DNA from: Patescibacteria group bacterium
GTDB taxonomy: Bacteria; Patescibacteriota; Kazan-3B-28
Reading direction: 5' to 3'
DNA length: 64,000 bases
NCBI GenBank assembly: GCA_041649135.1
Contig: JBAZNQ010000001.1
Span: forward strand, 163,037-227,036
A model generated the notes under the pieces. It searched no databases and was not told the origin of the DNA. It worked only from the letters and a program-made list of their open reading frames with translations. The translations under genes were made by a program, and so were the position numbers. Below, piece by piece: positions 7,743 through 64,000 of the stretch; position 1 is the first letter of the stretch; each line of letters begins with the position of its first letter.

Positions 7743-7846
7743 TGTAATAGTGGTAATCTTACAGGCAGAGGAGTATTCAGCTAATTTTCAGCTAACTGTT
7801 AGAAACTAGCCTTATCAACCAACTGCCCGATCTGTTAATTCGATGA

Positions 7847-7894
7847 GTCTATAAGTCTATCTGTCTATTAGTCCATAAGTCTATTAGTCTACCC
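7847..7894 (+). repeat. octamer tandem repeat (GTCTATNN)x6 directly against the start codon
   Basis: gtctataa gtctatct gtctatta gtccataa gtctatta gtctaccc, then ATG at 7895. Confidence 0.8.
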
Positions 7895-21722: not shown

Positions 21723-21756
21723 GAATCTTGCGTCCTAACCGTTAGACGATGGCGCC
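21682..21756 (-). tRNA. tRNA-Glu (anticodon CUC)
   Basis: reverse complement GGCGCCATCGTCTAACGGTTAGGACGCAAGATTCTCATTCTTGTAACCGGGGTTCGATTCCCCGTGGCGCTACCA folds as a cloverleaf (D arm GTCT/GGAC, anticodon stem CAAGA/TCTTG with loop TTCTCAT, T arm CGGGG-TTCGATT-CCCCG, encoded CCA); close to the E. coli tRNA-Glu pattern. Confidence 0.8.
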
Positions 21757-22083: not shown

Positions 22084-22120
22084 AGTTCGTTGCCCCAATA
22101 TTCCGCCTCTTACTAAATCC

Positions 22121-22173
22121 TAGATCCCAGATACTAGATACTAGATGCTAATCCCTAGATACTAAATGCTAAT
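22121..22173 (+). repeat. heptamer-periodic tract (TAGATRC-like) including a tandem duplication of the nfo start region
   Basis: tagatactagatgctaat (22135-22152) and tagatactaaATGctaat (22156-22173), 17 of 18 identical; the second copy contains the nfo start codon. Confidence 0.7.
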
Positions 22174-23948: not shown

Positions 23949-24042
23949 ATATCCTAGATATTTTGGTATGCTGGAAGAGATTTTTCCCTCATCTAGCTGA
24001 TATTTTGGCTATTGGTGATTGATTATTGGTTATTAACTCTTT

Positions 24043-25537: not shown

Positions 25538-25572
25538 TTAACTGTTCACCATTAACTATTAACTTTTAACTG
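25538..25572 (+). repeat. TTAACT direct repeats (4 copies) directly upstream of the start codon
   Basis: ttaactg ttcacca ttaacta ttaactt ttaactg ttt ATG. Confidence 0.7.
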
Positions 25573-25575
25573 TTT

Positions 25576-26643: not shown

Positions 26644-27978
26644 ATGTCCTATCTCGTTGCTATCGTCGGCCGACCCAATGTCGGCAAATCAACCTTGTTT
26701 AATCGCTTGATCGGAGAAAAGCGGGCGATTTTGGCTGAAGAACCGGGTACAACTCGAGATGTGTTATTTAGCAATGTTACTTGGAACAAAATTACTTTTA
26801 CTGTCGCCGATACGGCTGGCATTGAATTGGACAACAAATCCGAGCTGACCAAAAATGTTATGCTTCAGACCAAAGCTGCTCTCACCAGCGCTGATCTAAT
26901 TTTATTTCTGGTTAGCGCCAAAGAGGGGATTCACCCCGATGATCAAGCCGTTGCTAAATTAGTTCGCAAGCATAACAAGCCAATTCTATTGTTGATCAAT
27001 AAAACTGATAAAAAAGTTAGTCCAGATGTCATCGCCGATTTCCTTCGCCTTGGGTTCAAACAAACTTTTGAAACTTCCAGTATCACCGGCAAGGGCATTG
27101 GCGAAGTTTTAGATGAGACCGTTTTTCAATTAAATAAGATCAAGCGACCAATTGTTCCCACTGTCGTCGATGAAAATTTAATTCGGGTAGCTATTCTTGG
27201 TCGGCCCAACGTCGGTAAATCGACTTTATTCAATAAACTAATTGGCAAAGATCGTAGTCTGGTCAGTAAGATCGCCGGCACTACCCGCGACACTATTGAT
27301 GAACGAGTTGCCTTTGATGGTTGTACTTTAGAATTTGTCGATACCGCCGGCCTACGCCGACGTGGAAAAGTTGAAGTTGGAATTGAAAAATTCTCCAGCC
27401 TGCGGATGCTTCGCGCTGTCCAAGCTTCTGACATTTGTTTAGTTTTAATGGAAGCCGATGAAGGTGTCATCGCCCAAGATCAACACATTATCGAGATGGT
27501 GCTGGAGCTTAGCAAAAGCCCAATTTTAGTTGTTAACAAATGGGACTTGATCGAAAAGACTGGCAAAGTTACTGCCGACTACGATAAATATTTAAATCAA
27601 AAATATCGCTTCGCTACTTGGATCCCCAAAATTTATGTTTCCGCTTTAACCGGTCAACGTGTCGATAAAATTAAACAACTAGTTACTGACACTTGGACTC
27701 TCCGCAATATTCAGCTTACTGACGAAAAAATTAACGACATCATTAAACTAGCCGTCATCAAACGCACCCCGAGTGGTAAATATGTCACTCCCGTCGTTCA
27801 TTCCGCTCGTCAAGTCGCGACCAATCCGCCCAAAATCGAGCTAGTCGCTGATCATCCCGAAGGTCTTCACTTTACCTATCTTCGTTATTTAGAAAACAAA
27901 CTCCGTGAAACTTGGCCCCTGCCGGGTGTCCCGATTATCTTCGCCCCCCGTCCTCGTGCCCGCCACCAAAGAAAATAG
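26644..27978 (+). CDS. der: ribosome-associated GTPase Der (EngA)
   Basis: two tandem GTPase domains (GRPNVGKSTLFN twice, DTAG twice, NKxD twice) and a C-terminal KH-like domain. Confidence 0.9.
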   Translation: MSYLVAIVGRPNVGKSTLFNRLIGEKRAILAEEPGTTRDVLFSNVTWNKITFTVADTAGIELDNKSELTKNVMLQTKAALTSADLILFLVSAKEGIHPDDQAVAKLVRKHNKPILLLINKTDKKVSPDVIADFLRLGFKQTFETSSITGKGIGEVLDETVFQLNKIKRPIVPTVVDENLIRVAILGRPNVGKSTLFNKLIGKDRSLVSKIAGTTRDTIDERVAFDGCTLEFVDTAGLRRRGKVEVGIEKFSSLRMLRAVQASDICLVLMEADEGVIAQDQHIIEMVLELSKSPILVVNKWDLIEKTGKVTADYDKYLNQKYRFATWIPKIYVSALTGQRVDKIKQLVTDTWTLRNIQLTDEKINDIIKLAVIKRTPSGKYVTPVVHSARQVATNPPKIELVADHPEGLHFTYLRYLENKLRETWPLPGVPIIFAPRPRARHQRK

Positions 27979-36503: not shown

Positions 36504-36566
36504 GTGATGTCCCTATAATTGGAGATTGGACATTGGCGAATTGGACATTAAAACCGCCTCGCGGTT

Positions 36567-37214: not shown

Positions 37215-37253
37215 ATTGGTTTAGATTGGTGAGATTGAATAGATTGATTAGAC
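37215..37253. repeat. 9-mer tandem repeat GATTGGTNA family, copy a
   Basis: attggttta gattggtga gattgaata gattgatta. Confidence 0.7.
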
Positions 37254-39641
37254 TCCCCCTAATCCCGTATCTTTGGTGTACTTAATCCTTTCTCCAACTT
37301 GCATCTCTACTAGTCGTTTATCTTTCCCAAATTTTAAGCGCGCCAACTGACGGATCGCTTCCGCAATCTTTGGGTTACCTTCACCCATTGGCGGCAAAGC
37401 CTGCAAAGTAAATGGCCGACTCAACATCCCGTCAATCATCAATTTGACGTAGGCATTTCTATTTTCAATGTTGATCAAATCATTTTGACTAACATCTGGC
37501 TCAAATTGTTTCCCGATCGCTTCCGCATCCGGCGCACCGATCGTAAACGCTACCAATGAACCCACATTGCCAAATACCGCATCCCGGATCTTTTCTTCCA
37601 ACTGGGCAACAAATTGGTGCGCAATCGTCAAATTTAGTTTGTATTTCCGCGCCTCCGACAAAATCGTCGCGATCGAATCCGTGGTTACATTCTGGAACTC
37701 ATCAATATATAAATAGAAATCCTGACGTGCGCTCTCCGGCATATCCGCACGGCTAAGCGCCGCCATCTGCATCTTTGAGACCAGAATAAAGCCCAATAGG
37801 TTGCTGTTAATATCGCCAGTCAAACCCTTAGCCAGATTGACTAACAAAATCTTTTTGTTGTCCATCACATCACGGATATCAAACGAACTCTTAGCCTGAC
37901 CAACAATATTTCGCATCATTTCGTTACTAATAAACCGGCCGATTTTACTGATGATGTAGGAGAACAACTCCCCTACCTGATTACTTTTTTCGGCTTGGAC
38001 GAATTCCTCTTTCCAGAATCGCTGTACTGTCGGATCTGTTACCGAAGTCAATTTCGCCTCTCGAAACGCTTTGTCAGTAAACACCCTCGGGATATCAATT
38101 AGGGTCGCTCCTCCCCTTTCGTCTGCCAATAATAACAACATGGCATTGCGCATATAATGTTCAAAAATCGGGCCAACGATCCCAGAACTATTTGGATCAA
38201 ATAATTTATAAAAGATCGAGATCATCTCCGACACCACCATATCTTTTTCGGCTGGCGTCTTTGCTTCCAACAAGTTCAAGCCCAATGGTCGGTCAATGTC
38301 CGGCGGATAGAAATGAATCACATCATCAACTCGTAGTTTGGGTATTCTCTGTAATAACCACTCGATCATGTCGCCGTGAGGATCAATTACGCACACTCCC
38401 TCGCCATTATTAATATCCTGCAGAGCCAAATTTTGCATCCAAGTAGATTTGCCGGTACCAGTTTTACCAATCACGTAAATGTGCCGGCGTCTATCATCCC
38501 GGGAAATCCGCACTTGTTTTTCCATACCGCGAAAAACATTTTTCCCCAGCAGTATTCCTTCTTTGGGAAGATTTTCCGGTGCTACCAATCGTTTAGCTTT
38601 CAACCATCGCACATTCGGAGTTTCGGTCTTAGCCGTTGGCAAATGAAATATGGTCGCCAACTCTTCCGTATTCAAAATATCTGCATCTCTGGAATTACCA
38701 AATTGACGTAGAACATAATTACTCAATACTTCACCCTCTGGAATTTTTGCTGGCACCAAAGCATTGAGTTCCGGCGCATTAAATTGCAAGAAACTATCTA
38801 TCAATGTTTTTAAATGACTCCTCGCCTGAAGATCATCCGCCGCGGCCGCTACCAATCGAATTACCACCTCAAAACCAGTCTTTGATGCTTTAGTCTCCAC
38901 CGCCCGAATTACATCTTCCTGACCAGACGTAATTGGCTTGGGCGCAGATTTATTTTCTTCTGGTTGGGTAGTTGTTACTAATCCCCCCAATCCTTTTAAC
39001 ACTCCTTCGCCAATACTTCCGCCGCCACCTTTGCCCTGTTGCAGATTCTTAGCCGCCTGATGAGCTTGTTTCGCCCAACGATTGTCTGCTACTGGTCGAA
39101 ACGCCACTTGGATCGCCGCTCCTGCACCACTATCGGCCAATTTGCTCAAAGCATTAGTCAATGCCCCCAATCCATCCACCGCCAACGTTTGATAAGTTCG
39201 CAACGGAAAATAAGTTGGCTTCTTTAGCTGCAACTGAATACTGGCTACCCGTCCCTCTTTTACAAAAAAATTCGGATACGGTGCTTTTTCTACAATTGCG
39301 TCCGAATACTGTGAAGTGATTTGCTTTTCCACAAAATCTACCAATTCACTTGGTACATTCATATAAAAAGTAATCAACTCTTGTTCAGTTGCTATCTCAA
39401 AAGTCAGATGCCGCTCCCCTACCACATCTCGAATTCCTCCCAGATTACTAAAAATTGCCTCCATTGGAGCAATCATCGACTTCAAATCGGCCTGCGGATC
39501 ATCTTTTGGCCGCGGCACTGCAATCATCAAATTAGTTCGAGTCCGAATGTTGTCTTGGCTCACCCGCCCACTTTTTCTAAATAAAAACACTCCCCCAACC
39601 GAGATTAAAGCCAAGGTTAAAATTAAGTAAAACCAAAGCAT
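37248..39641 (-). CDS. membrane-anchored VirB4/TraC/HerA-like (AAA_10) ATPase
   Basis: N-terminal TM helix; Walker A IGKTGTGKST; Walker B LYIDEFQN; downstream EARKYKLNLTIAHQ motif; paralog of 47650-50526. Confidence 0.7.
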   Translation of the reverse strand: MLWFYLILTLALISVGGVFLFRKSGRVSQDNIRTRTNLMIAVPRPKDDPQADLKSMIAPMEAIFSNLGGIRDVVGERHLTFEIATEQELITFYMNVPSELVDFVEKQITSQYSDAIVEKAPYPNFFVKEGRVASIQLQLKKPTYFPLRTYQTLAVDGLGALTNALSKLADSGAGAAIQVAFRPVADNRWAKQAHQAAKNLQQGKGGGGSIGEGVLKGLGGLVTTTQPEENKSAPKPITSGQEDVIRAVETKASKTGFEVVIRLVAAAADDLQARSHLKTLIDSFLQFNAPELNALVPAKIPEGEVLSNYVLRQFGNSRDADILNTEELATIFHLPTAKTETPNVRWLKAKRLVAPENLPKEGILLGKNVFRGMEKQVRISRDDRRRHIYVIGKTGTGKSTWMQNLALQDINNGEGVCVIDPHGDMIEWLLQRIPKLRVDDVIHFYPPDIDRPLGLNLLEAKTPAEKDMVVSEMISIFYKLFDPNSSGIVGPIFEHYMRNAMLLLLADERGGATLIDIPRVFTDKAFREAKLTSVTDPTVQRFWKEEFVQAEKSNQVGELFSYIISKIGRFISNEMMRNIVGQAKSSFDIRDVMDNKKILLVNLAKGLTGDINSNLLGFILVSKMQMAALSRADMPESARQDFYLYIDEFQNVTTDSIATILSEARKYKLNLTIAHQFVAQLEEKIRDAVFGNVGSLVAFTIGAPDAEAIGKQFEPDVSQNDLINIENRNAYVKLMIDGMLSRPFTLQALPPMGEGNPKIAEAIRQLARLKFGKDKRLVEMQVGERIKYTKDTGLGGV

Positions 39642-40006: not shown

Positions 40007-41446
40007 TTATTCTGTCAATAGACGGTCTAAAATTTCCTTTACCAGAGCTGGTTCTGCCGCACCCTGACTCTTAGCCATCACTTGCCCAACCAGATACCCT
40101 ACTACTCGATTGTCCCCCGCTTTTGCCTTTACTACCACATCTGGGCTCTCGTTCATAACCGTTCTGACTAGCGCTTCCAATTCATCACTTCCCATCGTTT
40201 TGAGTTCGCCAACCAATTCAGCCGGCGTTTTGCCAGTTTTCTGCATCGCTTCATATAATTTTTGCGCCGCGTTGCTAGACAGTTTGTTTGCCATTACCAC
40301 CGCAATAAATTCGTCAAATCCTGTTCCCTTTGAAAACTTTTTCGGAAGCCAATTTGCCACTAACACCGGATCAAAATCTTTATGCTCATGCATTATCCAC
40401 ACAAAACTGAACAACATATCAATGTCTTGTAGTTCGCCTACCCGCGCATACGGCAATCCAAATTCCTCCGCCTTCAATCGCAAAGTTGATAAAGACATTG
40501 GCAAAGTCTCGGAAATCTTATCGATTTTTTCTTTATCAATGTAGATTGGCGGCAAATCCGGTTCTGGGAAATATCGATAGTCTACCGAGCCTTCCTTGCT
40601 CCGTTGCGAAACTGTCGTACCGGTTTTTTCATCCCAACCTCTAGTTTCCTGCATCACCCGCTCACCTTTTTCCAACAACTCTATCTGTCTTTCAATTTCA
40701 TATTTTAAAGCTTGTTCCATAAACCGAAATGAATTCATATTTTTTACTTCTACTTTAGCTCCCAACGTGTCTTGCCCCATTGGCCGAACCGACACATTCG
40801 CATCTACTCGCAAATGCCCTTTTTCCATATCCGCCTTCGACACACCCAAGCTTCTAACCAATCTCTGTAATTCTTGCAAAAACGCTTTCGCCTCCTCCGG
40901 TGATTTGATATCCGGCTCGGTCACGATCTCTGCCAACGGTGTCCCGCATCGATTCAAGTCCACCAACGTAGCCTCTTTTTCGTGCACTAACTTTCCCGCG
41001 TCTTCTTCCAAATGTAATCTAGTAATCCCAACCGCAAACTCTTTTTTGGTCTTTCTATCTGGTGCCAAATAATCCACATCTAAATTACCTTTTTCGCCCA
41101 CCGGATAGAAAAATTGAGAGATCTGATAAGCCTTCGGTAAATCCGGATAAAAATAATTCTTCCGATCAAACCTCTGCAAAGGATTAATCGTACAACCCAA
41201 CGCCAAGGCCAATTTAATTCCCCAGTCAATTGCCTGCTCGTTCATCACCGGCAACACCCCCGGATAGCCCATACACACCGGACAGACATTGGTATTCGGT
41301 TCCGCAGTTTCTGAATTATTATCGCATCGGCAAAACATCTTGGATTTAGTATCCAACTGAACATGAATTTCCAATCCAATCGTCGCCTGATATTTTTCTG
41401 TCGTCGTATTCATATCATTGAGTCCGCCCTTGCCATCTTTTACCAT
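40007..41446 (-). CDS. gatB: Asp-tRNA(Asn)/Glu-tRNA(Gln) amidotransferase subunit B
   Basis: IGLEIHVQL N-terminus; GatB core; C-terminal YqeY-like domain. Confidence 0.9.
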   Translation of the reverse strand: MVKDGKGGLNDMNTTTEKYQATIGLEIHVQLDTKSKMFCRCDNNSETAEPNTNVCPVCMGYPGVLPVMNEQAIDWGIKLALALGCTINPLQRFDRKNYFYPDLPKAYQISQFFYPVGEKGNLDVDYLAPDRKTKKEFAVGITRLHLEEDAGKLVHEKEATLVDLNRCGTPLAEIVTEPDIKSPEEAKAFLQELQRLVRSLGVSKADMEKGHLRVDANVSVRPMGQDTLGAKVEVKNMNSFRFMEQALKYEIERQIELLEKGERVMQETRGWDEKTGTTVSQRSKEGSVDYRYFPEPDLPPIYIDKEKIDKISETLPMSLSTLRLKAEEFGLPYARVGELQDIDMLFSFVWIMHEHKDFDPVLVANWLPKKFSKGTGFDEFIAVVMANKLSSNAAQKLYEAMQKTGKTPAELVGELKTMGSDELEALVRTVMNESPDVVVKAKAGDNRVVGYLVGQVMAKSQGAAEPALVKEILDRLLTE

Positions 41447-41484
41447 TCACTATTCACCGTTAACTATTAACTATTCATAATTCC
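41443..41484. repeat. ATTCACT/TTAACTA heptamer repeats against the gatB start
   Basis: ccattcactattcaccgttaactattaactattcat; gatB ATG (reverse complement) at 41444-41446. Confidence 0.65.
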
Positions 41485-41892: not shown

Positions 41893-43316
41893 CTTATTCT
41901 TTCGTAAGCATCTGCCACTTTTAATATCGTTGGTTCATCAAATTGTTTACCCATAATCTGCAGACCCACTGGCAGACCATCAACTTCACCGCACGGTATC
42001 GAAATCGCTGGGATGCCTGCTAGACTCGCTGGGGTAGTTAATAAATCCGCTTTGTACATCGCTAGTGGATCTTGCGCTCTTTCGCCGATCTTAAAAGCCA
42101 CCGTTGGAGTAGTTGGCGAAATAATCACATCAACATAGTTGGGATTGTTCTCTTTATCAAATGCCCAATCAAAATCTTTTTTAATTAGTGTTCTCACCCT
42201 TTGCGCTCTGTCATAATACGCATCGCGAAAACCAGCCGAGAGCGTATAAGTTCCCAACATGATCCGTCGCTTCACCTCCGCCCCAAACCCCTCCGCCCGA
42301 GTTTGAAAATACATTTCGACCAATCCAAGTTCGTTTTGGTGAGATTGGTTAGATTGATTAGATTGGTGAGATTTTTTCGACACCTGTGTCGAAAACCCAT
42401 ATCTCATTCCATCATATCTCGCCAAGTTAGCCGAAACTTCAGCGGGCTGAAGAATATAGTAAGTCGCTAAAGCATATTTGAAATGAGGCATTTTTATCGA
42501 TTGGTAGTTACTCGGATTAACCATCTTTTTCAATAAATCACATGCTTTAAAATACGGCTCCAACATCGCCTGTCCACTACCGCCTTCCATGATGAAATCG
42601 TCTAAAAATCCAATCTTCAACTTACTAATATCACCATCCAAAAATTCTTCATACGCTGGGACTGGAATATCAACTGTCGTCGAATCATACTCGTCATGCC
42701 CGGCGATCACCTGTAAAACCTTCGCCGCGTCTCGGACTGTTGTGGTAATCGGTCCAATTCTATCTAACGAGCTTGCCATCGCGATCAATCCATACCGGCT
42801 CACCCGTCCGTAAGTTGGCATCAGCCCGACCACTCCACAAAAACTAGCCGGCTGACGAATTGAGCCACCAGTGTCGCTCCCTAGCGCAAATGGCACCATT
42901 CCGGCCGCTACCGCGGCCGCCGAGCCCCCCGAACTGCCTCCCGGCACTCGTGATTCATCAACTGGGTTCTTGGTTACACCAAAGGCTGAATTTTCAGTTG
43001 AAGAACCCATCGCAAATTCGTCTAAGTTTGATTTTCCCACCATCACCGCTCCAGCTTCCCGCAATTTTTTCACTACTGTCGCTTCATACGGTGATACAAA
43101 ACCAGCCAACATTTTTGACGCCGCCGTAGTTGGTAGTTCCAGCGTCATAATATTATCTTTGCAAATATACGGCACATTAAGCTTGCCGGCTTTTGCCAAT
43201 GCTGGTTTTTCATTAGTTGATAAAACTGCATTCAAGCCTTGTTTGTCGTGAATGATTTTAAGCGATTCCGCCACTGCTTTCTCAATCCCTATTTTTCCCG
43301 CTTCCTCAATTTTCAT
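41889..43316 (-). CDS. gatA: Glu-tRNA(Gln)/Asp-tRNA(Asn) amidotransferase subunit A
   Basis: amidase signature [14 protein letters not shown], catalytic Ser/Lys context; contains an in-frame SHQ/SNQ repeat insert. Confidence 0.9.
42335..42373. repeat. 9-mer tandem repeat GATTGGTNA family, copy b (inside gatA CDS)
   Basis: ttttggtga gattggtta gattgatta gattggtga; translates in the gatA frame to [13 protein letters not shown]. Confidence 0.75.
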
Positions 43317-43331
43317 TGTTCCTACTCGTCC

Positions 43332-43374
43332 GATTGATTAGATTGGTTAGATTGGATAAATTGGTTAGATTATC
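43332..43374. repeat. 9-mer tandem repeat GATTGGTNA family, copy c
   Basis: gattgatta gattggtta gattggata aattggtta gattatc between gatA and gatC. Confidence 0.7.
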
Positions 43375-47649: not shown

Positions 47650-50526
47650 TTATAACGGACTTTGATCACCCTTGGGCTGGTCTGGCCCCCGCTCATCAGT
47701 CCGATCATCGTCAATGGTCTTGATCGGCTTTGGTTGTTCCGTCGCCGGCAACTGTAACTCCTGTTCCCCACTCGCAACTCGCGACTCATCACCCGTTACT
47801 CTTTTCGCCCTCTCAAGCGCCTCTTTAAATGAGCTAGCCTCACCCTTCAGATCTTCCGTGATCGTTTTAGCGATTTCTTCCTTTTGTTCCGGATTAAGCT
47901 TTTCCTGTTTCTTTTTTTCGATATTAGAGATCAAGCTCTTCAAGCCAGTTAGATCCGGACCCATCTTTGGAACTCCGCTCACCCGTTGAACTGGTCTAGG
48001 CTCACCTGTTCCCACTCCTGACCGAAATGGTTGTCCCGACGGTCGAGATTTTGGCGCCGGCTGAACCATTGCACCAGTCTGTGATGTTCGAATGTTTTCT
48101 TCCACCTGTTCTGACTTAGCTGAATATTGTTGACGTGACCATGCCAGCACCTTGGCTTTGTTGTTATTTTTATCCGCACTCGGTGGTAATGTTACCGCTG
48201 AAAACGCCCCTGCCGTCAACCCATCAATCGATAACTTCACGTAAATATTATAGATATCCAAATTCACCAAATCCTGTTCGGTAAAAACTGGTGCAAATTC
48301 TTTGGTCAAAAACGCCGCATCATCACTCCCAACTCGAAACGCGATCAACGTTCCCACGTTGCCAAATACCGCCTTGCTCACCACTTCCGACAATTGAGCA
48401 ATGTACTGGTGCGCCATGGTTAAACTTAAACCGTATTTTCTGGCTTCCGACAAGATCGTCGCAAAAGAATCAGTCGCAAAGTTTTGAAACTCATCTACAT
48501 ACAGGAAGAAATCTTTTCTCGTGGCGACTGCCGCATCTGCCCGACTCATCGCCGCCAACTGCATCTTAGTAATAATTAACGCCCCTAATAGCGCGGCATT
48601 GTCTTCTCCGATCAAACCCTTCGACAACTTCACCATCACAATTTTTTCTTCATCCATCAGCCGACGAATATTGATCGAGCTTTTGGTCTGACCAACAATA
48701 TTGCGAATAATTGACGAAGACAAAAACTGACCAACTTTATTTAAAATTGGTGAGATCGTTTCACTTCTCTGCCGCTGATCAAGTTTGTTGTACTCACCAA
48801 TCCACCGATTTTTAATAATCGGATCCTGCACTTTATCGATCACCTGTTCTCGAAATGCGTCATCCACAAATAATCTCGGCACCATGATCAAAGTCGCACC
48901 CGGATAATCAAGCAGTGCCAAAATCGCTGACGCCAACCAGTATTCCAACCGTGGCCCCCAAGATTCACCGAAGATCTTTTTAAATACCCCCACTACTCCG
49001 CTAGCTGTTACTAATTTATATTTTGGATCTTCAACTTCCAAAATGTTAAATCCGATCGGAAACTCCTTGTCGCTTGGATCGAACACCACCACATCTTCGA
49101 TCCGGTTATCCGGAATTCGATCCAATACATAATCCACGTATTCACCGTGCGGGTCTACCACCGCTACCCCTCGGTTTTCGACGATATCATCGATCGCCAT
49201 ATTCTGCAGGAGTGTTGATTTACCAGTACCGCTTTTCCCGATCACGTAGACGTGTCGTCTCCGATCAGCAATTTTGACACCAAATTTTTCCTGACTCCCG
49301 CGAAAATTGGTTACCCCCAGATTCGTCAGTAATTCCGCCGGAGTTTCATCTACTAACGGCAAATTCGCCGGTGGTTCACCTTTTTTCGCTCCCGCCCACA
49401 CCAAGTGCGGTGTGGTTACTGTTTTGTTTGGCAAATGGTAAATACTTGCCAGTTCGCTCACATTCAAAATAAATCCCGGTCGGACAAATAATCGATTAGC
49501 ATACTCTGTTAATATTTCCTGTCGCGATAAACTATCCGGCAGTGCTATAAACCCATTCAGATTAGTAGTGTTGTATTGTTTGTATGAGCCTACTACTAAA
49601 TCTAATTTCTGTTGCGCCGCAGCGACCGTATCGTCCACCGCGACAATTCTCACCATGGTCTGGAAACCTAGCTTGGTACTTTTCTCTTCGATCCGCTTGA
49701 GTGATTCTTCTACCCCTGGCGCTAATTCGATCTTTTTGTCCTTTTCCGGACTGCTCGTCGCCTCGGTGGCTCCGCCACTAATCGCTGTTCTCATGACATC
49801 CGAAGCCAAACCACTTAAACTTTTCATTAATGCCGCTCGAAAACTTTTTCGGCCAGCTTTCACATCCGCAATATATTTCACCGCTCGGTTCCGCCAACTA
49901 TCCCCTTCTGGCCGGATCAATATCTGTACCCAAATCTGCGAATCACCTTGCAATTTGCTCAAAGTCGCAGTAATTGCCGCCAATGGATCAACATCAAAAC
50001 TCTCAAAACTTTTAATTGGGAAAAGATCTTCTCGTACCAATTGCAAATTCGCCGATGCCACCGCTAAATTCTCTGGTATCTTAGTCGCATCAGCATAATC
50101 TTTAAATTCATGGATCGTCACCCCTGGGTACTGTGCGTAGATTTGTCCCTCAACATATCCTTGTAAATGTTTTGGTGCCCAAACAAAAAATCGGATCGAT
50201 TTCTCTTTGGCTTGCATCTCAAAACTGATATGCTCCTGCCCCGCCCGCAGTTTGTCACTATCTGGTCGATAAATTCCATGTAGGCTGGAGAACATCAATT
50301 CTGCCGCCAAAGCGGTAATTTCATTATCTTTCGGCACTTCGATCGCCAACAGCACTCCTTCCTGCGGCCCCATCACACTCCCGATCACCGGAACTGTGGT
50401 GAATTTTTGTTGCTCTACTTTGCCTATTCGACTCCTCTGCCAAAACCAAATCACTAGGCCAAAAAATATCAGCCACCCCACTGCCAGTAGACCCAGCGCT
50501 ATCAAGTTGGAAGAGTTCTCTAACAT
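47650..50526 (-). CDS. membrane-anchored VirB4/TraC/HerA-like (AAA_10) ATPase, long paralog with basic Pro-rich C-terminal tail
   Basis: N-terminal TM helix; Walker A IGKSGTGKST; Walker B LYVDEFQN; EARKYGLSLTMAHQ. Confidence 0.7.
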   Translation of the reverse strand: MLENSSNLIALGLLAVGWLIFFGLVIWFWQRSRIGKVEQQKFTTVPVIGSVMGPQEGVLLAIEVPKDNEITALAAELMFSSLHGIYRPDSDKLRAGQEHISFEMQAKEKSIRFFVWAPKHLQGYVEGQIYAQYPGVTIHEFKDYADATKIPENLAVASANLQLVREDLFPIKSFESFDVDPLAAITATLSKLQGDSQIWVQILIRPEGDSWRNRAVKYIADVKAGRKSFRAALMKSLSGLASDVMRTAISGGATEATSSPEKDKKIELAPGVEESLKRIEEKSTKLGFQTMVRIVAVDDTVAAAQQKLDLVVGSYKQYNTTNLNGFIALPDSLSRQEILTEYANRLFVRPGFILNVSELASIYHLPNKTVTTPHLVWAGAKKGEPPANLPLVDETPAELLTNLGVTNFRGSQEKFGVKIADRRRHVYVIGKSGTGKSTLLQNMAIDDIVENRGVAVVDPHGEYVDYVLDRIPDNRIEDVVVFDPSDKEFPIGFNILEVEDPKYKLVTASGVVGVFKKIFGESWGPRLEYWLASAILALLDYPGATLIMVPRLFVDDAFREQVIDKVQDPIIKNRWIGEYNKLDQRQRSETISPILNKVGQFLSSSIIRNIVGQTKSSINIRRLMDEEKIVMVKLSKGLIGEDNAALLGALIITKMQLAAMSRADAAVATRKDFFLYVDEFQNFATDSFATILSEARKYGLSLTMAHQYIAQLSEVVSKAVFGNVGTLIAFRVGSDDAAFLTKEFAPVFTEQDLVNLDIYNIYVKLSIDGLTAGAFSAVTLPPSADKNNNKAKVLAWSRQQYSAKSEQVEENIRTSQTGAMVQPAPKSRPSGQPFRSGVGTGEPRPVQRVSGVPKMGPDLTGLKSLISNIEKKKQEKLNPEQKEEIAKTITEDLKGEASSFKEALERAKRVTGDESRVASGEQELQLPATEQPKPIKTIDDDRTDERGPDQPKGDQSPL

Positions 50527-58730: not shown

Positions 58731-59189
58731 TCAATTTCCACCGGGCAAATCTAGCTGATTAGTTAAAAATCCATTGCCATATTCCATATCGCCACCCTTG
58801 CATTGCACCCCGATCAACCAGCCACCGATCATATATAGCAACAATCCGGTTAGCGCCGCGACGATCATCTGTTTCGATAATCCAACACTTAATTCTCCCC
58901 CCGATGCTCCCATTGAAGTGGCATAAATAATTCCTGCGGCAATTACCATCAACACTGCTAGTGTTACCAATACCGTCGAACCAAGATCAATTGCCGTACA
59001 CACATATTGACCAAAAGTCAGACTGGTAGTGGTACTACTTGCGTTATCTCCAGTCGCCGCCAACACTGCTGCCAGCAATCCGCTAGCTTGCGATACATAT
59101 ACCAATCCCACCAGCCCCACGGCGCCCCAGTAGATCTTGATCAACCACTTCGCCCAGCCCAGTTTGTGATTATTCTTCTTATTCATCAT
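58731..59189 (-). CDS. hypothetical membrane protein (four TM helices)
   Basis: start taken at MMNKKNN (59189); the longer N-terminal extension lies in the repeat region. Confidence 0.35.
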   Translation of the reverse strand: MMNKKNNHKLGWAKWLIKIYWGAVGLVGLVYVSQASGLLAAVLAATGDNASSTTTSLTFGQYVCTAIDLGSTVLVTLAVLMVIAAGIIYATSMGASGGELSVGLSKQMIVAALTGLLLYMIGGWLIGVQCKGGDMEYGNGFLTNQLDLPGGN

Positions 59190-59312
59190 CACTAGCCTGA
59201 TTTCAGGCTGTATTGTACACGAAAACCCCACTCTCTTCAATCCCCAGAGAGAATCTAAACGATCTAACCAGCCTTCGCCGAACACCCCACCCAGTCAAGT
59301 TTTCTCCCATCT

Positions 59313-59410
59313 GGCCATTGGAGCTTGAGCGTCTTGGGTTTTGAATCCCCTTCGAGCCAATTGCGTCCTATCCTAATTTGGCCATTGGAGCGAAGTCGTC
59401 TTGAATTGAG
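59313..59410. repeat. dispersed repeat family 'GGCCATTGGAGC ... GAGCCAATTGCGT', copy 2 (59313-59364) plus partial copy 3 (59380-59410)
   Basis: matches 28914-28964. Confidence 0.7.
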
Positions 59411-59511
59411 ATAAATTGCCGTCGCGGGGGCATGTTTGACGAGGTGGCAACCGAGGAGTTTGCCCTTTAAGCGGTAAGGCAATTTGTCCAATGAACAGAC
59501 CGAGCGAACAC

Positions 59512-59551
59512 GGCCACGGCTTTGGATACTTTCCCCAAGAGGAAAGTATCC
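59512..59551. repeat. conserved hairpin element 'GGCCACGGCTTTG + stem-CCAAGA-stem', copy 2
   Basis: ggccacggctttg GGATACTTTCC ccaaga GGAAAGTATCC. Confidence 0.7.
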
Positions 59552-59609
59552 GCCCCTCAAGGGTGGCGTAGACCCTTGGAAAGAAAAATAAACATTTCTG
59601 TTTCTGTCT

Positions 59610-59635
59610 GGATTCCCGATCAGGTCGGGAATGAC
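59610..59635. repeat. GTCAT palindromic mini-element (intergenic copy)
   Basis: reverse complement GTCATTCCCGACCTGATCGGGAATCC. Confidence 0.7.
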
Positions 59636-59674
59636 GAAGGAAAAAAGAAACAAAAACAAAGCCGAAGGCAAAAC

Positions 59675-61873
59675 CTAAGACTTCTCTTCAAATCCACACT
59701 TCGTACAAACCGGATAGCCTTTTTTCGCTGGTTTAGTCATCATTTCTCCGCAAGTTGGACAAGGCTGCTCTACTGGTTCATCCCACGAAGCAAAATCACA
59801 CTTCGGATAATTACCACATCCCCAAAATACTTTCCCACGTTTGGTCCGACGTACTACTACTCGTCCTTCCTTACATTTCGGACAAGCCATATCGACTGTC
59901 GGCAAATTAATATTTTCAATATTTTTGCATTCCGGATAATTGCTACAACCATAAAACGGACCAAACCGGCCAGTTTTTTTCACCATCGGCGCTCCACACT
60001 TACTACACACTTTGTCAGTTGCTTCAACCGTGCTCTTACCATGACCATCAATTGGTTCGGTATATTTACATTCCGGAAATCCCGAACAAGCCATAAATTT
60101 TCCAAACCGACCGGTTTTTATCACCATCGGTTTACCACATTTGATGCAGACTTTATCAGTCGCTTCATCTTCTGTTACTTGTTTGACCACTTCTTTGTCC
60201 TTTAATTGTATTTGCTTAATAAATGGTTCATAAAATTCCCGTATTACCGGCTCCCATTTCTTTTTGCCTTCCGCCACTTCATCCAGATCATCTTCCATCC
60301 GCGCTGTAAAATTATAATCCACGATATTGGGAAAATGTTCTACTAGAAAATCATTTACCATCATCCCGACTGGTTGCGGGATCAACATTCGTTTTTCTTT
60401 TTTGACATAGCCTCGCACACCCAAAGTTACGATCGTTGGCGCATAAGTACTCGGTCGGCCAATTCCCATCTTTTCCATTTGCTTTACCAGCGATGGTTCA
60501 GTATACCGAGCCGGTGGTTCAGTAAAATGCTGGGTCGGCGAAACTTTCAACAATTTTAGTATCTCATCATTAGATACTACTGGCAGTTTATTTTCTTGAA
60601 ATGGCCACCTATCAAATACTTTTGCAAAACCGGGGAAAATAATTATTGCCCCATTTGCTTTACTCTCCACGGTGTCCGACCTCACGATCACTTCTTTGGT
60701 TTGGATCTGCGCCGATTTCATTTGGCACGCGATCATTCTCTGCCAAACCAATTTGTATAATTTAAACTGCTCATCGGTTAGTTTGCCTCGCACTTGGTCG
60801 GGAGTTAGCGCTGGATTAGTCGGCCGAATTGCTTCATGAGCTTCCTGTGCCCCTTTACTCTTGGTTTTATAGAATCTTGGTTTCTCCGGCAGATATTCCC
60901 CTCCAAACATCTGTTCGATAGTCTGTCTCGCTACCATCACCGCCGACATTGCCAAACTCGTTGAGTCAGTTCGCATATAAGTAATTAGACCAACCTGTCC
61001 GCTTCCAACATCCACCCCTTCGTATAGTTGCTGGGCTACCGTCATCGTGCGCTTTACCCCAAACCCCAACTGCGTTCCTGCCGCTTGCTGAAGTGTTGAA
61101 GTAGTAAACGGTGCTGCTGGATGACGTTCTTTCATATCATCCTTAATGCCAACGATCTTGTGTTCGGTAGCATTCTCCAATATCTTCACGATCCGATCAG
61201 CGTCAGCTTGTACCACCAAAGTCGGAACCTGACCATTTTCTTTGATGACCTCGGCAACCAACTGTTCGCTACCAGTAGTTTGAAATTGCGTTTCGATCGT
61301 CCAATATTCTTGAGGATCAAATGCTTCGATCTCCCGTTCTCGTTCGACTAATAATCGCAACGCTACTGATTGCACCCGTCCGGCTGATAACCGCCTAAAG
61401 ATCTTCCGCCACAATAACGGGCTTAATTTATAGCCCACTAACCTATCCAAAATTCTCCGCGCTTGTTGGGCATCAACCAAATTCAGATCAATTTTGCGAG
61501 TATGTTTAAACGCCTCCTTAATTGCTTCAGGTGTAATTTCATGAAACGCCACCCGATGGATTTTTTCATCAGCCTTTTTCAAAACTTGCTGAATATGCCA
61601 GCCGATCGCTTCTCCCTCACGATCCTCGTCAGTTGCTAGATAGACCTCATTAGCCTTACTCGCCAGTTCTTTTAATTTAGTTACTGTTTTTCGACTCGCA
61701 GTTGGGATGACATATTCCGGTTGGAAATCATCCTCCACCGCCACCCCCAATTTTGATTTCGGTAAATCCCGAACGTGCCCATAAGACGCTTCCACTTTAT
61801 ATTTATCACCCAAAATCTTGGCAATTGTTCTTGCCTTTGTTGGTGATTCCACAATAACTAAATCTTTGGTCAT
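59675..61873 (-). CDS. topA: DNA topoisomerase I
   Basis: TOPRIM N-terminus (LVIVESPTKARTIAKILG), catalytic Tyr region, three C-terminal CxxC...CxxC zinc ribbons. Confidence 0.9.
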   Translation of the reverse strand: MTKDLVIVESPTKARTIAKILGDKYKVEASYGHVRDLPKSKLGVAVEDDFQPEYVIPTASRKTVTKLKELASKANEVYLATDEDREGEAIGWHIQQVLKKADEKIHRVAFHEITPEAIKEAFKHTRKIDLNLVDAQQARRILDRLVGYKLSPLLWRKIFRRLSAGRVQSVALRLLVEREREIEAFDPQEYWTIETQFQTTGSEQLVAEVIKENGQVPTLVVQADADRIVKILENATEHKIVGIKDDMKERHPAAPFTTSTLQQAAGTQLGFGVKRTMTVAQQLYEGVDVGSGQVGLITYMRTDSTSLAMSAVMVARQTIEQMFGGEYLPEKPRFYKTKSKGAQEAHEAIRPTNPALTPDQVRGKLTDEQFKLYKLVWQRMIACQMKSAQIQTKEVIVRSDTVESKANGAIIIFPGFAKVFDRWPFQENKLPVVSNDEILKLLKVSPTQHFTEPPARYTEPSLVKQMEKMGIGRPSTYAPTIVTLGVRGYVKKEKRMLIPQPVGMMVNDFLVEHFPNIVDYNFTARMEDDLDEVAEGKKKWEPVIREFYEPFIKQIQLKDKEVVKQVTEDEATDKVCIKCGKPMVIKTGRFGKFMACSGFPECKYTEPIDGHGKSTVEATDKVCSKCGAPMVKKTGRFGPFYGCSNYPECKNIENINLPTVDMACPKCKEGRVVVRRTKRGKVFWGCGNYPKCDFASWDEPVEQPCPTCGEMMTKPAKKGYPVCTKCGFEEKS

Positions 61874-61940
61874 AAATTTTTTCTTCCCCCTGTTCCCCGA
61901 TCCCTGATCCCTGATCCCTAGCCCTCGCAGACCCTTCGTA

Positions 61941-61964
61941 GTTCCGCTGAAGAGCAGAACGTAG
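61941..61964. repeat. degenerate intergenic copy of the TTCTGCTG-N-CAGCAGAA palindrome
   Basis: gttccgctgaagagcagaacgtag between topA and dprA. Confidence 0.45.
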
Positions 61965-61969
61965 TCGGG

Positions 61970-62842
61970 CTAACCCCTCACCCCAAACTTCCCCATACCA
62001 GCATTAATAATAACTCCGCGCATTTCTAAGAAGGTTACGATAACGTTTATCTCCGATGTCGTCAATTCTGTCAATTGGGCAATCTCATCAATTGTCTTGG
62101 CACCAGAGGTAAGTGTGTCATAAATGATTTGTTCCAATTCCGTCAAATCATTCGCTACTGCCACCATTGGCGCCTCTACCACATCATTGGGTCCCAAAAC
62201 TGGTTTAGCCCCTTCCGCGATCAATTGATTCGGACCAAAAGCATTTGGATTGGTAATCTGCCCCGGTACCGCTAAAACTTCTCGATTATAATCCAACCCC
62301 AATCTAGCAGTAATCAATGCCCCGCTTCCTTCTGCCGCTTCCACCACCACGATCTTGTGACTCAAACCAGCAATAATCCTATTTCGTTGTGGAAAATGTT
62401 GTTTCAACGGCGGCGTCCCTGCGGGATATTCCGAAATTAAAGCTCCTCCGTTTTGAAGGATCACCTTAGCCAATTCTCTATTGGTAGGCGGATAAATTGA
62501 TTCATCATCAATCCCTGAACCCAACACCGCCACTGTTACTCCTTTTTGATTGACCACCGCCTGATGTGCCAAACTATCCACTCCGTAAGCCAAGCCACTC
62601 ACGATCACACATCGATTGGCTAGCTTTTCTGCTAAAACTGTCGCCACTTGGATCCCATATGGAGTCGGTTTACGCGAACCAACCATAGCCACCATTTCAT
62701 CACCTCGCCAATCTAAATTCCCCCGCACATACAATTTCTGTGGCGGATCAGAAATTTCTTTCAACTGGGCAGGATATTCTGCATCAGTCATATCAACTAC
62801 TCGAATATCGTTTACAACTTCCATAACGTTTTCAGAATACAT
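61970..62842 (-). CDS. dprA: DNA processing protein A (Smf), Rossmann-like DNA-binding domain
   Basis: MVAMVGSRKPTPYG..VIVSGLAYGVDSLAH..GGALISEYP pattern of DprA. Confidence 0.8.
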   Translation of the reverse strand: MYSENVMEVVNDIRVVDMTDAEYPAQLKEISDPPQKLYVRGNLDWRGDEMVAMVGSRKPTPYGIQVATVLAEKLANRCVIVSGLAYGVDSLAHQAVVNQKGVTVAVLGSGIDDESIYPPTNRELAKVILQNGGALISEYPAGTPPLKQHFPQRNRIIAGLSHKIVVVEAAEGSGALITARLGLDYNREVLAVPGQITNPNAFGPNQLIAEGAKPVLGPNDVVEAPMVAVANDLTELEQIIYDTLTSGAKTIDEIAQLTELTTSEINVIVTFLEMRGVIINAGMGKFGVRG

Positions 62843-62903
62843 ATAATATATGTGATTGGTCTACCCCATGTTAATCCACCAGACCATGATCGCAGTAACA
62901 TAG

Positions 62904-63001
62904 AACTCTCTACTCTCTACTCTCTACTCTCTACTCTCTACTCTCTACTCTCTACTCTCTACTCTCTACTCTCTACTCTCTACTCTCTACTCTCTACTCT
63001 C
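62904..63001 (+). repeat. heptanucleotide microsatellite (TACTCTC)x13-14 in the dprA/hypothetical divergent promoter region
   Basis: perfect 7-nt periodicity from 62911 to 63001, then TTACT and ATG 63007. Confidence 0.9.
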
Positions 63002-63006
63002 TTACT

Positions 63007-63501
63007 ATGAAACCTAAACCATTTGTCCGTAGTTTTTGGGGAATCGCCTTTATCCTCATCCTCACTCTGGTCTTATTGGGTGTAAAAAACTATCGCACAA
63101 ATTACTTCGGTTTTAATCTCGACCATTCAAATTTAGTTGGTACATTGATTGATAAAAAACAGGCTGGTACAGCCCATTTGATCACTAGTGACACCGAACT
63201 AGCCAAACTCTGCCATCTGACTAAAGATGCTCAAATCGATTGGCAAAATCAAGTCGTCTTCGCCTTTTTTGGGCTAACCAAATCCAGCGACCAACTTGAA
63301 TTAACCAGTCTCCGACGGCAAGGTGCTGATGTCAACCTCCATTACGCCGTTACTCCCCGATCTACTCCGACCACCAATTATCCAGTACTATTGACTGTCG
63401 TTGATCGCACTCGGTTAATCGCTTCCAGCACTCTGACTGTAAAATTTATCAATAACAATACCATTACCAATCTCTTCACCATCACCCCTGACCAAATCTA
63501 G
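63007..63501 (+). CDS. hypothetical membrane-anchored/secreted protein
   Basis: N-terminal TM helix (FWGIAFILILTLVLLGV); 164 aa; flanked on both sides by heptamer microsatellites. Confidence 0.4.
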   Translation: MKPKPFVRSFWGIAFILILTLVLLGVKNYRTNYFGFNLDHSNLVGTLIDKKQAGTAHLITSDTELAKLCHLTKDAQIDWQNQVVFAFFGLTKSSDQLELTSLRRQGADVNLHYAVTPRSTPTTNYPVLLTVVDRTRLIASSTLTVKFINNNTITNLFTITPDQI

Positions 63502-63559
63502 TTTCCTGTCCCCACTCTCCATTATTCATTCTTATTTCTTCACTCGTCATTCTTAATTC

Positions 63560-63629
63560 TTCTCTCTTCTCTCTTCTCTCTTCTCTCTTCTCTACTCTCT
63601 ATTCTCTATTCACTATTCACTATTCACTA
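63560..63629 (+). repeat. drifting heptamer microsatellite (TTCTCTC)x4 then TTCTCTA then (TTCACTA)x3, against the next start codon
   Basis: 10 consecutive 7-nt units ending 6 nt before ATG 63636. Confidence 0.85.
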
Positions 63630-63635
63630 TCCCCC

Positions 63636-64000
63636 ATGGCCCTCGACATTTCCGTTAACACAATTTTTAAAATTCTCATCGTCCTACTGGGGCTTTGGTT
63701 TGTATTTGTAATTCGCGATATCATCGCCATCATTTTTGCTGCCCTCATTGTTACTGCCGCGCTTTCTCCTGTCGTTGATCGCATGGCCAAAAGCGGCATC
63801 CCTCGAGTACTCACCATTCTGGTTGCCTATTTACTACTAATTGGCCTGATTGGCGTTTTGGTCTATTTCATCTTACCGCCAGCTATCACCCAGCTCCGCC
63901 AACTAGCCGATCAACTCCCCAGTTACTTTAGCTACTTCCAAAATCTGGTGAACAACATCAGAGAGTTCGGTCTTGAGAACCATCTTATCACCGACTCTCA
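63636..64000 (+). CDS. AI-2E family transporter (PerM/YdiK-like), 5' partial, continues beyond the window
   Basis: MALDISVNTIFKILIVLLGLWFVFVIRDIIAIIFAALIVTAALSPVVDRMAKSGIPRVLTIL matches the conserved AI-2E N-terminus. Confidence 0.55.
   Translation, partial: MALDISVNTIFKILIVLLGLWFVFVIRDIIAIIFAALIVTAALSPVVDRMAKSGIPRVLTILVAYLLLIGLIGVLVYFILPPAITQLRQLADQLPSYFSYFQNLVNNIREFGLENHLITDS

Follow-up and report, generated by a model that had tools for sequence, protein, structure and literature searches.

The 64,000-nt stretch of DNA analysed here (hereafter the window; contig JBAZNQ010000001.1, positions 163,037 to 227,036) belongs to a Patescibacteria metagenome-assembled genome (MAG) and contains a perfect tandem array of fourteen ACTCTCT heptanucleotides, referred to as array 1, which lies between the divergently transcribed dprA gene and the start of ORF164, a small gene that encodes a membrane protein. 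In cyanobacteria, short tandemly repeated repetitive (STRR) heptanucleotide sequences were reportedly described by Mazel et al. in 1990, and consensus units have been defined for heterocystous and filamentous cyanobacteria. The arrays of the window resemble the STRR sequences in being intergenic tandem heptamers of several unit families dispersed over the chromosome. However, both the units and the taxon, a Patescibacteria MAG, differ.

Heptamer direct repeats with the unit TAACTGA have been described from marine Beggiatoaceae, some cyanobacteria and Bacteroidetes (MacGregor 2015; PMC4679880). In the Beggiatoaceae these repeats mostly end a few nucleotides before a start codon, with the commonest class ending 1 nt upstream, and they overlap the expected ribosome-binding site of genes of all functions, including essential ones, for which a Shine–Dalgarno (SD) motif is rare (PMC4679880). 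Close relatives carry shorter, repeat-free spacers, strains differ in 7-nt steps, contigs break within the arrays, and the repeats were proposed to be sites for a trans-acting factor that controls a regulon (PMC4679880). The window shares with this system heptamers scattered at start codons, their occurrence before genes of all kinds of function (essential genes among them), rare SD motifs, repeat-free relatives and contig breaks. It differs in phylum and in possessing several unit families (ACTCTCT, TTCTCTC, TTCACTA, TTAACTA/G, ATTGGTT, CCCTGAT and TACTAGA), none of which is TAACTGA, and only the array at 25538 (TTAACTG/TTAACTA) resembles that unit. Furthermore, array orientation in the window goes with the chromosome strand instead of with the gene (six arrays), and the one perfect array has at least 14 copies compared with 2–6 in BOGUAY.

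The hmw1A and hmw2A genes of Haemophilus influenzae carry a phase-variable (ATCTTTC)n repeat in the 5' untranslated region (5'-UTR) (PMC12721329, PMC8262952). There a G-rich arm pairs with the repeats, and RNase III cleaves the long hairpin that results (PMC12721329), and both the variation in copy number and its effect on expression have been demonstrated (PMC12721329, PMC8262952). Array 1 is likewise a pyrimidine-rich heptanucleotide simple sequence repeat (SSR) of more than ten copies between a candidate promoter and the start of an envelope-type gene, and would likewise be transcribed within the leader. In contrast to hmw, it has no partner arm and its leader is predicted to be unstructured; such a hairpin was predicted at rpmF of the relative L036.

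Two further systems place tandem repeats between or near a gene's promoter and its start codon. In Moraxella catarrhalis the number of (AGAT)n repeats in the uspA2 5'-UTR tunes expression, and in Vibrio cholerae, as outlined in a preprint, expression of ctxAB is tuned by the number of TTTTGAT promoter heptads bound by ToxR (bioRxiv 10.1101/2021.05.14.444153). The mechanism has been established for both, as has the protein that binds in the case of ctxAB, and neither has a known counterpart here. In the prokaryotic survey of long simple sequence repeats (LSSR) of Mrazek et al. 2007, heptanucleotide units are the most abundant class as summarised in PMC4679880, and, going by that summary, the survey neither included Patescibacteria nor described a placement at start codons. 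As far as the summary goes, the window is similar to LSSR genomes in its genome-specific excess of 5–11-nt tandem repeats with period 7 dominant, in having an array (array 1) longer than expected by chance, and in tolerating units of a multiple of three within coding sequence, as with a 9-nt repeat in gatA; polymerase slippage is the cause proposed there. Searches of the literature collection used here on tandem repeats, heptamers or phase variation in Patescibacteria or the candidate phyla radiation (CPR) returned no relevant report. The locus is best filed as an addition, from a new phylum, to the known start-codon-proximal heptanucleotide repeats, and any contingency role is putative.

A perfect heptanucleotide array abuts the start codon of ORF164

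Array 1 occupies positions 62905–63002 on the + strand and was characterized with a repeat finder, an exact-run scan and a shuffle test. Tandem Repeats Finder reported a period of 7, 14.0 copies, 100% matches and a score of 196, and the exact-run scan recovered the identical 98-nt run. The 14-mer ACTCTCTACTCTCT occurs 13 times in register within the array and was not found in 100 dinucleotide-preserving shuffles. Four nucleotides, TACT, separate the end of the array from ATG 63007 and, because the array contains no G, no SD motif is possible within it. In both the minimum free energy and the centroid structures array 1 was predicted to be wholly unpaired (z = -0.27). A search against Rfam found no known RNA family near the locus, a tRNA being the sole match in the window.

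The original prediction, which was made from the letters of the window, had placed 13–14 perfect heptamers just before ATG 63007 and a second heptamer array before ATG 63636 of an AI-2E family transporter gene, with a membrane-protein gene between them, dprA transcribed divergently and no room for an SD motif before ATG 63007. Each of these claims was confirmed: array 1 has 14 copies and a 4-nt gap to its start codon, the second array (array 2, 63558–63630) has a 5-nt gap, both abut their start codons and leave no room for an SD motif, the protein encoded between them has an N-terminal hydrophobic anchor, and dprA lies on the minus strand at 61970–62842.

The copy number of 14 in array 1 was taken from one MEGAHIT contig (ENA ERZ27247363 k141_2225525, 420 kb). 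The length of the array, 98 nt, equals k-1 for the k = 99 step in the default k list of MEGAHIT, so the 14 copies may be a collapsed minimum and the true length could exceed that number. A contig from a second assembler also contains the ACTCTCT allele's left junction. In this contig (L031, from the k = 31 Logan assembly of SRR8542065) the junction reads GTAACATAGA followed directly by ACTCTCT units, and the contig breaks off after 30 nt of the array, the length that k = 31 would give.

The 164-aa ORF164 (63007–63501, + strand) was assigned by synteny and BLASTP and carries an N-terminal membrane anchor. A profile search gave no Pfam match, and a database sequence search with the protein returned only itself (WC553_01185, MFA5009830.1, which is recorded as a hypothetical protein and comes from a ‘Patescibacteria group bacterium’ MAG). 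BLASTP against the syntenic ORF174 of the relative L032 gave 32% identity (E 2e-28), and this ORF174 scores 27.5 bits with PrcB_C, above the gathering cut-off of 24. The N-terminus of ORF164, MKPKPF, is kept in L036. By similarity and synteny, ORF164 is a real, conserved gene and a homologue of the 173–174-aa PrcB_C-domain protein of the relatives.

Array 1 is an insertion at the ancestral start codon

For comparison, five sister species or genera with a DprA identity of 65–71% were used (L032, L034, L036, L037 and L038). The gene order uvrB, AI-2E, ORF174, dprA, topA is common to all five contigs. The spacers of the relatives are short, with 6–25 nt between ORF174 and dprA, 3 nt between the ORF174 stop and the AI-2E start, and at most 24 nt between dprA and topA; no array was found in any of these three spacers in any of the five.

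Alignment with the five relatives defined insertion 1 (62871–63006, + strand), which consists of a unique 34-nt head (62871–62904), the array and TACT. It sits between the ancestral start codon (62868–62870) and the present start codon (63007–63009). In L036 the leader runs directly into the coding start, reading ...catataatatatgtattcggtctaccct ATG aaaccaaaacc, while the window reads ...catataatatatgtgattggtctacccc ATG, then ttaatcc and the remainder of the 34-nt head, (ACTCTCT)14, tact and a second ATG, followed by aaacctaaacc. In total 139 nt are placed between the ancestral ATG 62868 and codon 2, the ATG is duplicated on either side of the insertion, and the ancestral ATG remains intact together with the 25-nt divergent spacer (62843–62867), which is conserved with L036. 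No second copy of the 34-nt head was found in the window. An origin of the head as a degenerate duplicate of the ORF164 5' end was considered and rejected, the alignment score of 10 being set against a shuffle mean of 11.4. By this alignment, array 1 is an insertion specific to the lineage and located precisely at the start codon.

If translated, the ancestral ATG would open an upstream open reading frame (uORF) of 11 codons (MLIHQTMIAVT; 62868–62903, + strand), whose TAG stop (62901–62903) lies 1 nt before array 1. A 52-aa open reading frame running through the array (62852–63010) and ending in ATGA over the start codon was also considered, as a means of frame-dependent translational coupling. 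It was judged unlikely, having a GTG start, no SD motif, a beginning at or before the putative transcription start and no counterpart in the second allele of array 1 described below.

Period-7 arrays are nearly absent from the related loci, with one in L036 and none in L032, L034 and L035. Other Patescibacteria dprA loci from GTDB genomes showed no period-7 excess, and the arrays are thus not a phylum-wide trait. At a cyanobacterial control locus (L020, Okeania) six period-7 arrays were found in 8.6 kb.

Promoter-like sites lie outside array 1

The original prediction had proposed that copy-number changes would alter the promoter-to-start spacing of both divergent genes. A consensus scan placed a dprA promoter-like site, TTAACA-18-TATATT with 10/12 matches, at 62845–62874 on the - strand, in non-repeat DNA beside dprA. 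Array 1 is upstream of its -35 box, so the number of repeats cannot alter the spacing between this candidate promoter and the dprA start. A TATAAT hexamer at 62842–62847 (+ strand), kept in 5/5 relatives, is the likely -10 element of the ORF164 promoter. It is upstream of array 1, and the repeat number would alter the leader length of ORF164 and not its promoter geometry. The proposed effect on dprA is not supported. No promoter-like site was found within array 1, and the total number of sites returned by the scan was no greater than expected by chance.

The dprA gene itself was identified through Pfam (DNA_processg_A, E 7e-75, and DprA_WH domains), is divergent from ORF164, and has its best GTDB matches in Patescibacteria at no more than 49% identity. 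Its start is ambiguous between 62842 and 62824, and public records use both (290 and 284 aa), with the 284-aa form from 62824 present in ENA and NCBI records. The upstream ATG (MYSEN...) is kept in the relatives; the predicted dprA promoter would begin transcription 3' of this ATG (62842), and in the relative L034 an AGGAG precedes the second ATG (MEV...).

A second array precedes the AI-2E transporter gene

The spacer between ORF164 and the AI-2E gene is filled by insertion 2 (63502–63635, + strand), which was delimited by the repeat finder and the alignment of the relatives and contains only two G residues. Degenerate ATTCTTA-type units begin at ~63513 and precede array 2, which itself runs from 63558 to 63630 and consists of five TCTTCTC units followed by ACTCTCT, ATTCTCT and three TTCACTA units. 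The five nucleotides CCCCC separate its end from ATG 63636. At the AI-2E start the relatives read aaatcTAAtttATG, compared with aaatcTAGttt, 131 nt of arrays and ATG in the window. Folding of both leaders, that of ORF164 and that of the AI-2E gene, gave ~0 kcal/mol, and both are predicted to be unstructured. The AI-2E gene (Pfam E 5e-18) is represented in the window by its 5' part (63636–64000, + strand) and its complete product, read from the source contig, has 341 aa.

Array 1 is replaced as a whole between near-identical strains

Identical DprA and/or ORF164 proteins are encoded in four other samples (JGI 3300037067, JGI 3300014205, ENA ERZ27247358 and Logan SRR18595300). When a JGI contig was aligned to window positions 58970–63700, only two differences were present in 4.7 kb. 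The first is a replacement of the block 62899–63005 by a 79-nt degenerate heptamer array, ...GTTCCCTACCCACTCCTCTCTCCTCTTCATTCGTCATTCTTAATTCTTAATTCTTCATTCTTCATTACCTCATT, termed allele B, which is common to all four other-sample contigs. Strain alignment also revealed a single-nucleotide polymorphism (SNP) within array 2 at 63594 (+ strand), where the window has an A that makes the ACTCTCT unit and L002 and L003 have a G. The SRR8542065 Logan assembly carries the ACTCTCT allele. In allele B the uORF is longer, at 28 codons, and only 24 nt lie between its stop and the main ATG, compared with 103 nt in the present allele.

Across five to six samples, then, array 1 has two alleles that differ in sequence and not merely in number, and the variation seen among assembled contigs is replacement of the whole array, with no copy-number ladder. 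An exact search of JGI metagenome contigs with the left flank CCACCAGACCATGATCGCAGTAA gave no match and no further alleles. Array 1 is the fastest-evolving sequence of the region and is hypervariable. In contrast, the arrays at 25538, 26526, 41445 and 43332 are identical between samples wherever strain contigs cover them. Contigs from other samples break inside or at arrays.

A separate divergent patch was observed in the 5' part of a der/engA-like GTPase gene, where nine substitutions relative to the JGI contig L025 fall within 82 nt (26667–26748) and the adjacent DNA is identical. Two more substitutions are present at 27042–27057, ~300 nt downstream, giving 11 in all. The patch resembles recombination between otherwise near-identical strains.

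Arrays abut start codons across the window

The census of arrays covered the 64 kb of the window and 53 genes on a crude open reading frame map. Nine period-7 segments (at least 3 copies, at least 85% matches) were found, compared with 0.1 in shuffles. Period 7 is the only strongly enriched period; period 9 gave two arrays and periods 6, 8 and 10–13 none. An array with a 7–9-nt unit lies within 45 nt upstream of the start in 10/53 genes and ends 0–15 nt away from it, and in co-directional spacers the arrays are always at the start-codon end. A 4-mer SD was present at one of the ten array-preceded genes, compared with 14/53 overall, and clear GGAGG sites exist at other genes of the window. By predicted folding, the start regions (-45 to +21) of array-preceded genes had a mean of -4.2 kcal/mol and those of the remaining genes a mean of -10.1 kcal/mol (Mann–Whitney p = 2.5e-4). 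The array-preceded genes include the housekeeping genes gatA, gatB, topA and those for a class II aminoacyl-tRNA synthetase (aaRS) and an AP endonuclease, and the arrays are thus not restricted to genes for interaction with the environment.

On the + strand, an 8-nt array with the unit AGTCTATA (5.8 copies, 7846–7891) ends 3 nt before ATG 7895 of an OmpR-type response regulator gene. A TACTAGA-type array (7.7 copies, 22111–22164) ends 1 nt before ATG 22166 of the gene for AP endonuclease 2, a TTGGTTA array (4.3 copies, 24005–24034) stands 8 nt before ATG 24043 of the class II aaRS gene, and a TTAACTA-type array (4.9 copies, 25538–25574), identical in two other samples, ends 1 nt before ATG 25576 of a peptidase S11 gene. 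On the - strand, an ATTGGAC-type array (4.4 copies, 36518–36549) lies 14 nt upstream of ATG 36503 of a GT2 glycosyltransferase gene, and an array at 41445–41477 (ATTCACT/TTAACTA on the + strand), identical in three other samples, abuts the gatB start codon at 41446. A 9-nt array at 43332–43371 (- strand; AATCTAACC on the gatA sense strand) lies 15 nt upstream of gatA ATG 43316.

The topA gene (59675–61873, - strand) is preceded by a CCCTGAT array of 4.6 copies (61888–61919, - strand; GGGATCA on the topA sense strand) that lies 14 nt upstream of its ATG at 61873. The spacer between dprA and topA measures 96 nt in the window and at most 24 nt in the relatives. The topA mRNA strand over window positions 61888–61930 reads GGGCTAGGGATCAGGGATCAGGGATCGGGGAACAGGGGG. 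With six G-runs of at least 3, it fits the canonical pattern for G-quadruplex formation and stops ~15 nt short of the topA start codon.

Arrays share cores within the window and beyond it

For shared-core scores the maximum of the null was 28 unless stated otherwise. Local alignment showed that allele B and array 2 share the core TCTTCA[T/C]TCGTCATTCTTAATTCTT over 24/25 nt, with a score of 50 against a shuffle maximum of 33. The arrays at 25538 and 41445 have 26/30 nt in common, and array 2 matches an array 13 nt upstream of rpmF in L036 over 27/28 nt. The 9-nt unit of the gatA leader (AATCTAACC / AATCTAATC) recurs inside gatA itself at window positions 42336–42373 (- strand) as an in-frame SHQ/SNQ repeat. 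This recurrence suggests that arrays are copied from site to site and, if their period is a multiple of three, can persist within coding sequence. A derivation of the whole insertion as a copy of the ORF164 3' end together with array 2 was also tried; only a 40-nt core was clearly significant and the head added little, leaving this derivation as a possibility only.

The TTNACTA and ATTGG families have the same + strand orientation before genes on either strand, albeit in a small sample of six arrays. With the chromosomal orientation fixed in this way, the unit is present in the mRNA of some genes and its complement in that of others.

At L036:4669–4785 (- strand; DprA identity 65%), the leader of rpmF, encoding L32, carries ATTCTCT/ACTCTCT heptamers 13 nt before the ATG. 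Upstream of them is a purine-rich array (TAGAGAC, GAGAGCG, TAGAGAT, GAGAGTA) that pairs with the heptamers in a long predicted hairpin of -34 kcal/mol (z = -3.6), with none of 200 shuffles as good. The hairpin is similar to the one formed by the hmw 5'-UTR repeats in H. influenzae. In the L036 record, the start annotated for rpmF seems to have been placed too far downstream.

Public metagenomes were scanned for TTCTCTACTCTCTATTCTCTA, which gave 94 stretches (L039–L132) that represent 83 distinct loci with a GC content of 0.29–0.64 and arrays of up to 30 copies. An open reading frame of at least 100 aa starting no more than 30 nt after the array was found in the forward direction at 17 of the 83 loci and in the reverse direction at 12 (one locus having both), and at 55 none was found. 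These arrays are often mixed with TTCACTA, CCAATTA or ACTCCCT units (e.g. L044:161–202, L090, L054 and L066). In L044, which was assigned to the Anaerolineales (Chloroflexota), aroA starts 7 nt after the array. The ACTCTCT unit thus recurs in bacteria as a heptamer repeat and is not confined to this locus.

Other features of the window

In the region 20193–21756 of the window, a serine recombinase gene (Resolvase and Recombinase domains, 509 aa) overlaps at its 3' end a tRNA-Glu(CTC) gene on the opposite strand (21682–21756), an arrangement resembling the boundary of an element that has integrated at a tRNA gene. Two large genes for DUF87/TrwB/TraG-like ATPases, similar to type IV coupling proteins, lie on the - strand within 10 kb (37248–39641 and 47650–50526), and a homologue is present at the same place in L036. 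Beside a syntenic rnc-nusB block, L036 also has a pair resembling a diversity-generating retroelement (bAvd and a reverse transcriptase; L036:1453–2922), of which no equivalent was seen in the window.

Discussion

At a probability of about 0.55, we favour the reading that array 1 is a recently expanded, slippage-prone heptamer SSR in the leader of ORF164 and one of a lineage-specific, genome-wide population of 7-nt (at times 8–9-nt) arrays at SD-less starts. Insertion or growth of these arrays would have taken place precisely where the old leader met the start codon, at genes that have no SD motif. Transcription from the TATAAT beside dprA would place array 1 in a G-free, non-folding leader of ~150 nt, on which initiation at ATG 63007 could proceed independently of an SD motif. 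Having no G, array 1 cannot form stable structure and is therefore read as an open leader that would permit such initiation, in keeping with the established rule that genes without an SD motif rely on start regions free of structure. Initiation might also follow termination of the uORF begun at the ancestral ATG. The length and identity of the array would then shift the length of the leader and the distance between the uORF stop and the ATG in 7-nt steps, and the outcome would be a quantitative tuning of translation rather than on/off switching. Turnover would occur through replication slippage and through exchange between neighbouring arrays. An exchange is what the SNP in array 2 points to, as the ACTCTCT unit that it makes is found in the same strain as the (ACTCTCT)n array 1.

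Several points weigh against this reading. Only two alleles were found, and they differ by replacement of the whole tract plus two flanking substitutions, for which simple slippage of units is alone no explanation. The low structure of the leader may be a trivial result of any tandem repeat that is not self-complementary and need not have been selected. The relatives express the same genes without an array, and the array is thus not required for expression. In addition, the gene starts were taken from the crude map of open reading frames, the genome was covered over 64 kb, and the transcription start of ORF164 is a predicted position (about 62853–62856, downstream of the TATAAT).

A classical contingency locus, in which slipped-strand changes in ACTCTCT copy number would reversibly switch or grade ORF164 in the manner of ATCTTTC at hmw1A/hmw2A, is the alternative that survives best, although we regard it as unlikely. 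It would account for a long perfect repeat in the leader before a gene for an envelope-type protein, and for array 1 being the sole hypervariable spot between identical strains, with contigs of other samples breaking in or at it. The hmw system itself shows that a transcribed heptamer SSR is capable of switching (PMC12721329). However, no copy-number series was seen, the alternative allele being a different sequence. Neither a promoter element nor a reading frame whose spacing array 1 would disturb was identified, a complementary G-rich arm for an hmw-like hairpin is absent, and the sister taxa have no array 1 altogether. Similar arrays also precede gatA, gatB, topA and the aaRS gene, and those covered are invariant between samples. 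The original prediction of a slipped-strand contingency locus is supported as to hypervariability between strains; as to copy number, only whole-tract replacement was seen among the assembled contigs. The comparison with related strains that it had called for did reveal a difference at array 1 in four samples, but a difference of sequence, and five sister taxa had no array. Nor does array 1 appear as a special switch on one gene, since it is the longest of many start-abutting arrays, most of them before housekeeping genes and, where covered, invariant between strains.

By analogy with the proposal made for Beggiatoaceae, or with the ToxR-bound TTTTGAT heptads of ctxAB, the arrays might instead be recognized in a sequence-specific way by a factor acting in trans, for example ribosomal protein S1, a protein of the Csp/CsrA kind or a transcription factor, and so form a regulon. 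The arrays do occupy the ribosome-binding position of many genes at which an SD motif is absent, and unit families recur at unrelated genes, even in another genus. Yet the units are heterogeneous (ACTCTCT, TTCACTA, TTAACTA, ATTGGTT, CCCTGAT, TACTAGA, and 8- and 9-mers), the orientation of the TTNACTA and ATTGG families follows the chromosome strand and not the gene, and most of the 83 metagenome loci have no following open reading frame in either direction (forward 17, reverse 12, absent 55). We regard common recognition by one factor as improbable.

It is just as hard to credit the inserts as copies of a small mobile or copy-pasted element, composed of a unique head and a heptamer tail and targeted to start codons, of which the perfect tract would be a secondary expansion. 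The duplicated ATG that flanks insertion 1 would fit such an event, as would the 24/25-nt non-repetitive core and similar C-rich head shared by the inserts of allele B and array 2, and the recurrence of the gatA leader 9-mer within the gatA coding region. Against this, the 34-nt head is unique in the window, terminal inverted repeats and a link to a transposase are absent, and arrays elsewhere have unrelated flanks. Extending the alignment into the head improved it barely beyond the core (score 62, reached by 1/500 shuffles).

That the perfect tract or its length was made by the assembler is very improbable: although 98 nt is k-1 of the MEGAHIT k = 99 step, repeats beyond read length are routinely collapsed and other contigs end in arrays, the independent k = 31 assembly of SRR8542065 has the same left junction and the flanks join without a break and match other strains at 100% identity, which leaves the copy number alone in doubt.

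The reading of array 1 as an expanded SSR in an SD-less leader bears on the biology of the CPR/Patescibacteria, whose genomes are very small, with a minimum of intergenic DNA and with few regulators. In genomes so small and so poor in regulators, arrays at ~1 in 5 gene starts of the window are notable. The insertion of arrays and the complete turnover of one of them between otherwise identical strains point to an unexplored diversity of expression and of SD-independent translation in the phylum, and extend the heptanucleotide-repeat phenomenon from cyanobacteria, Beggiatoaceae and Bacteroidetes to a new phylum. Comparison of the state before and after insertion, as offered by the sister genera, could help to explain how such arrays originate. 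For annotation, contigs can be expected to break, and copy numbers to be collapsed, at loci of this kind. More speculatively, and with the odds well against it, heptamer arrays may constitute a distinct class of leader that replaces the SD motif, is set precisely at start codons, is spread between leaders and even into coding sequence by copying or gene conversion, and through rapid expansion and replacement provides a genome-wide ‘soft’ contingency in this Patescibacteria lineage and perhaps in Anaerolineales. If so, near-clonal populations would harbour heritable, strain-level differences in the expression of single genes.

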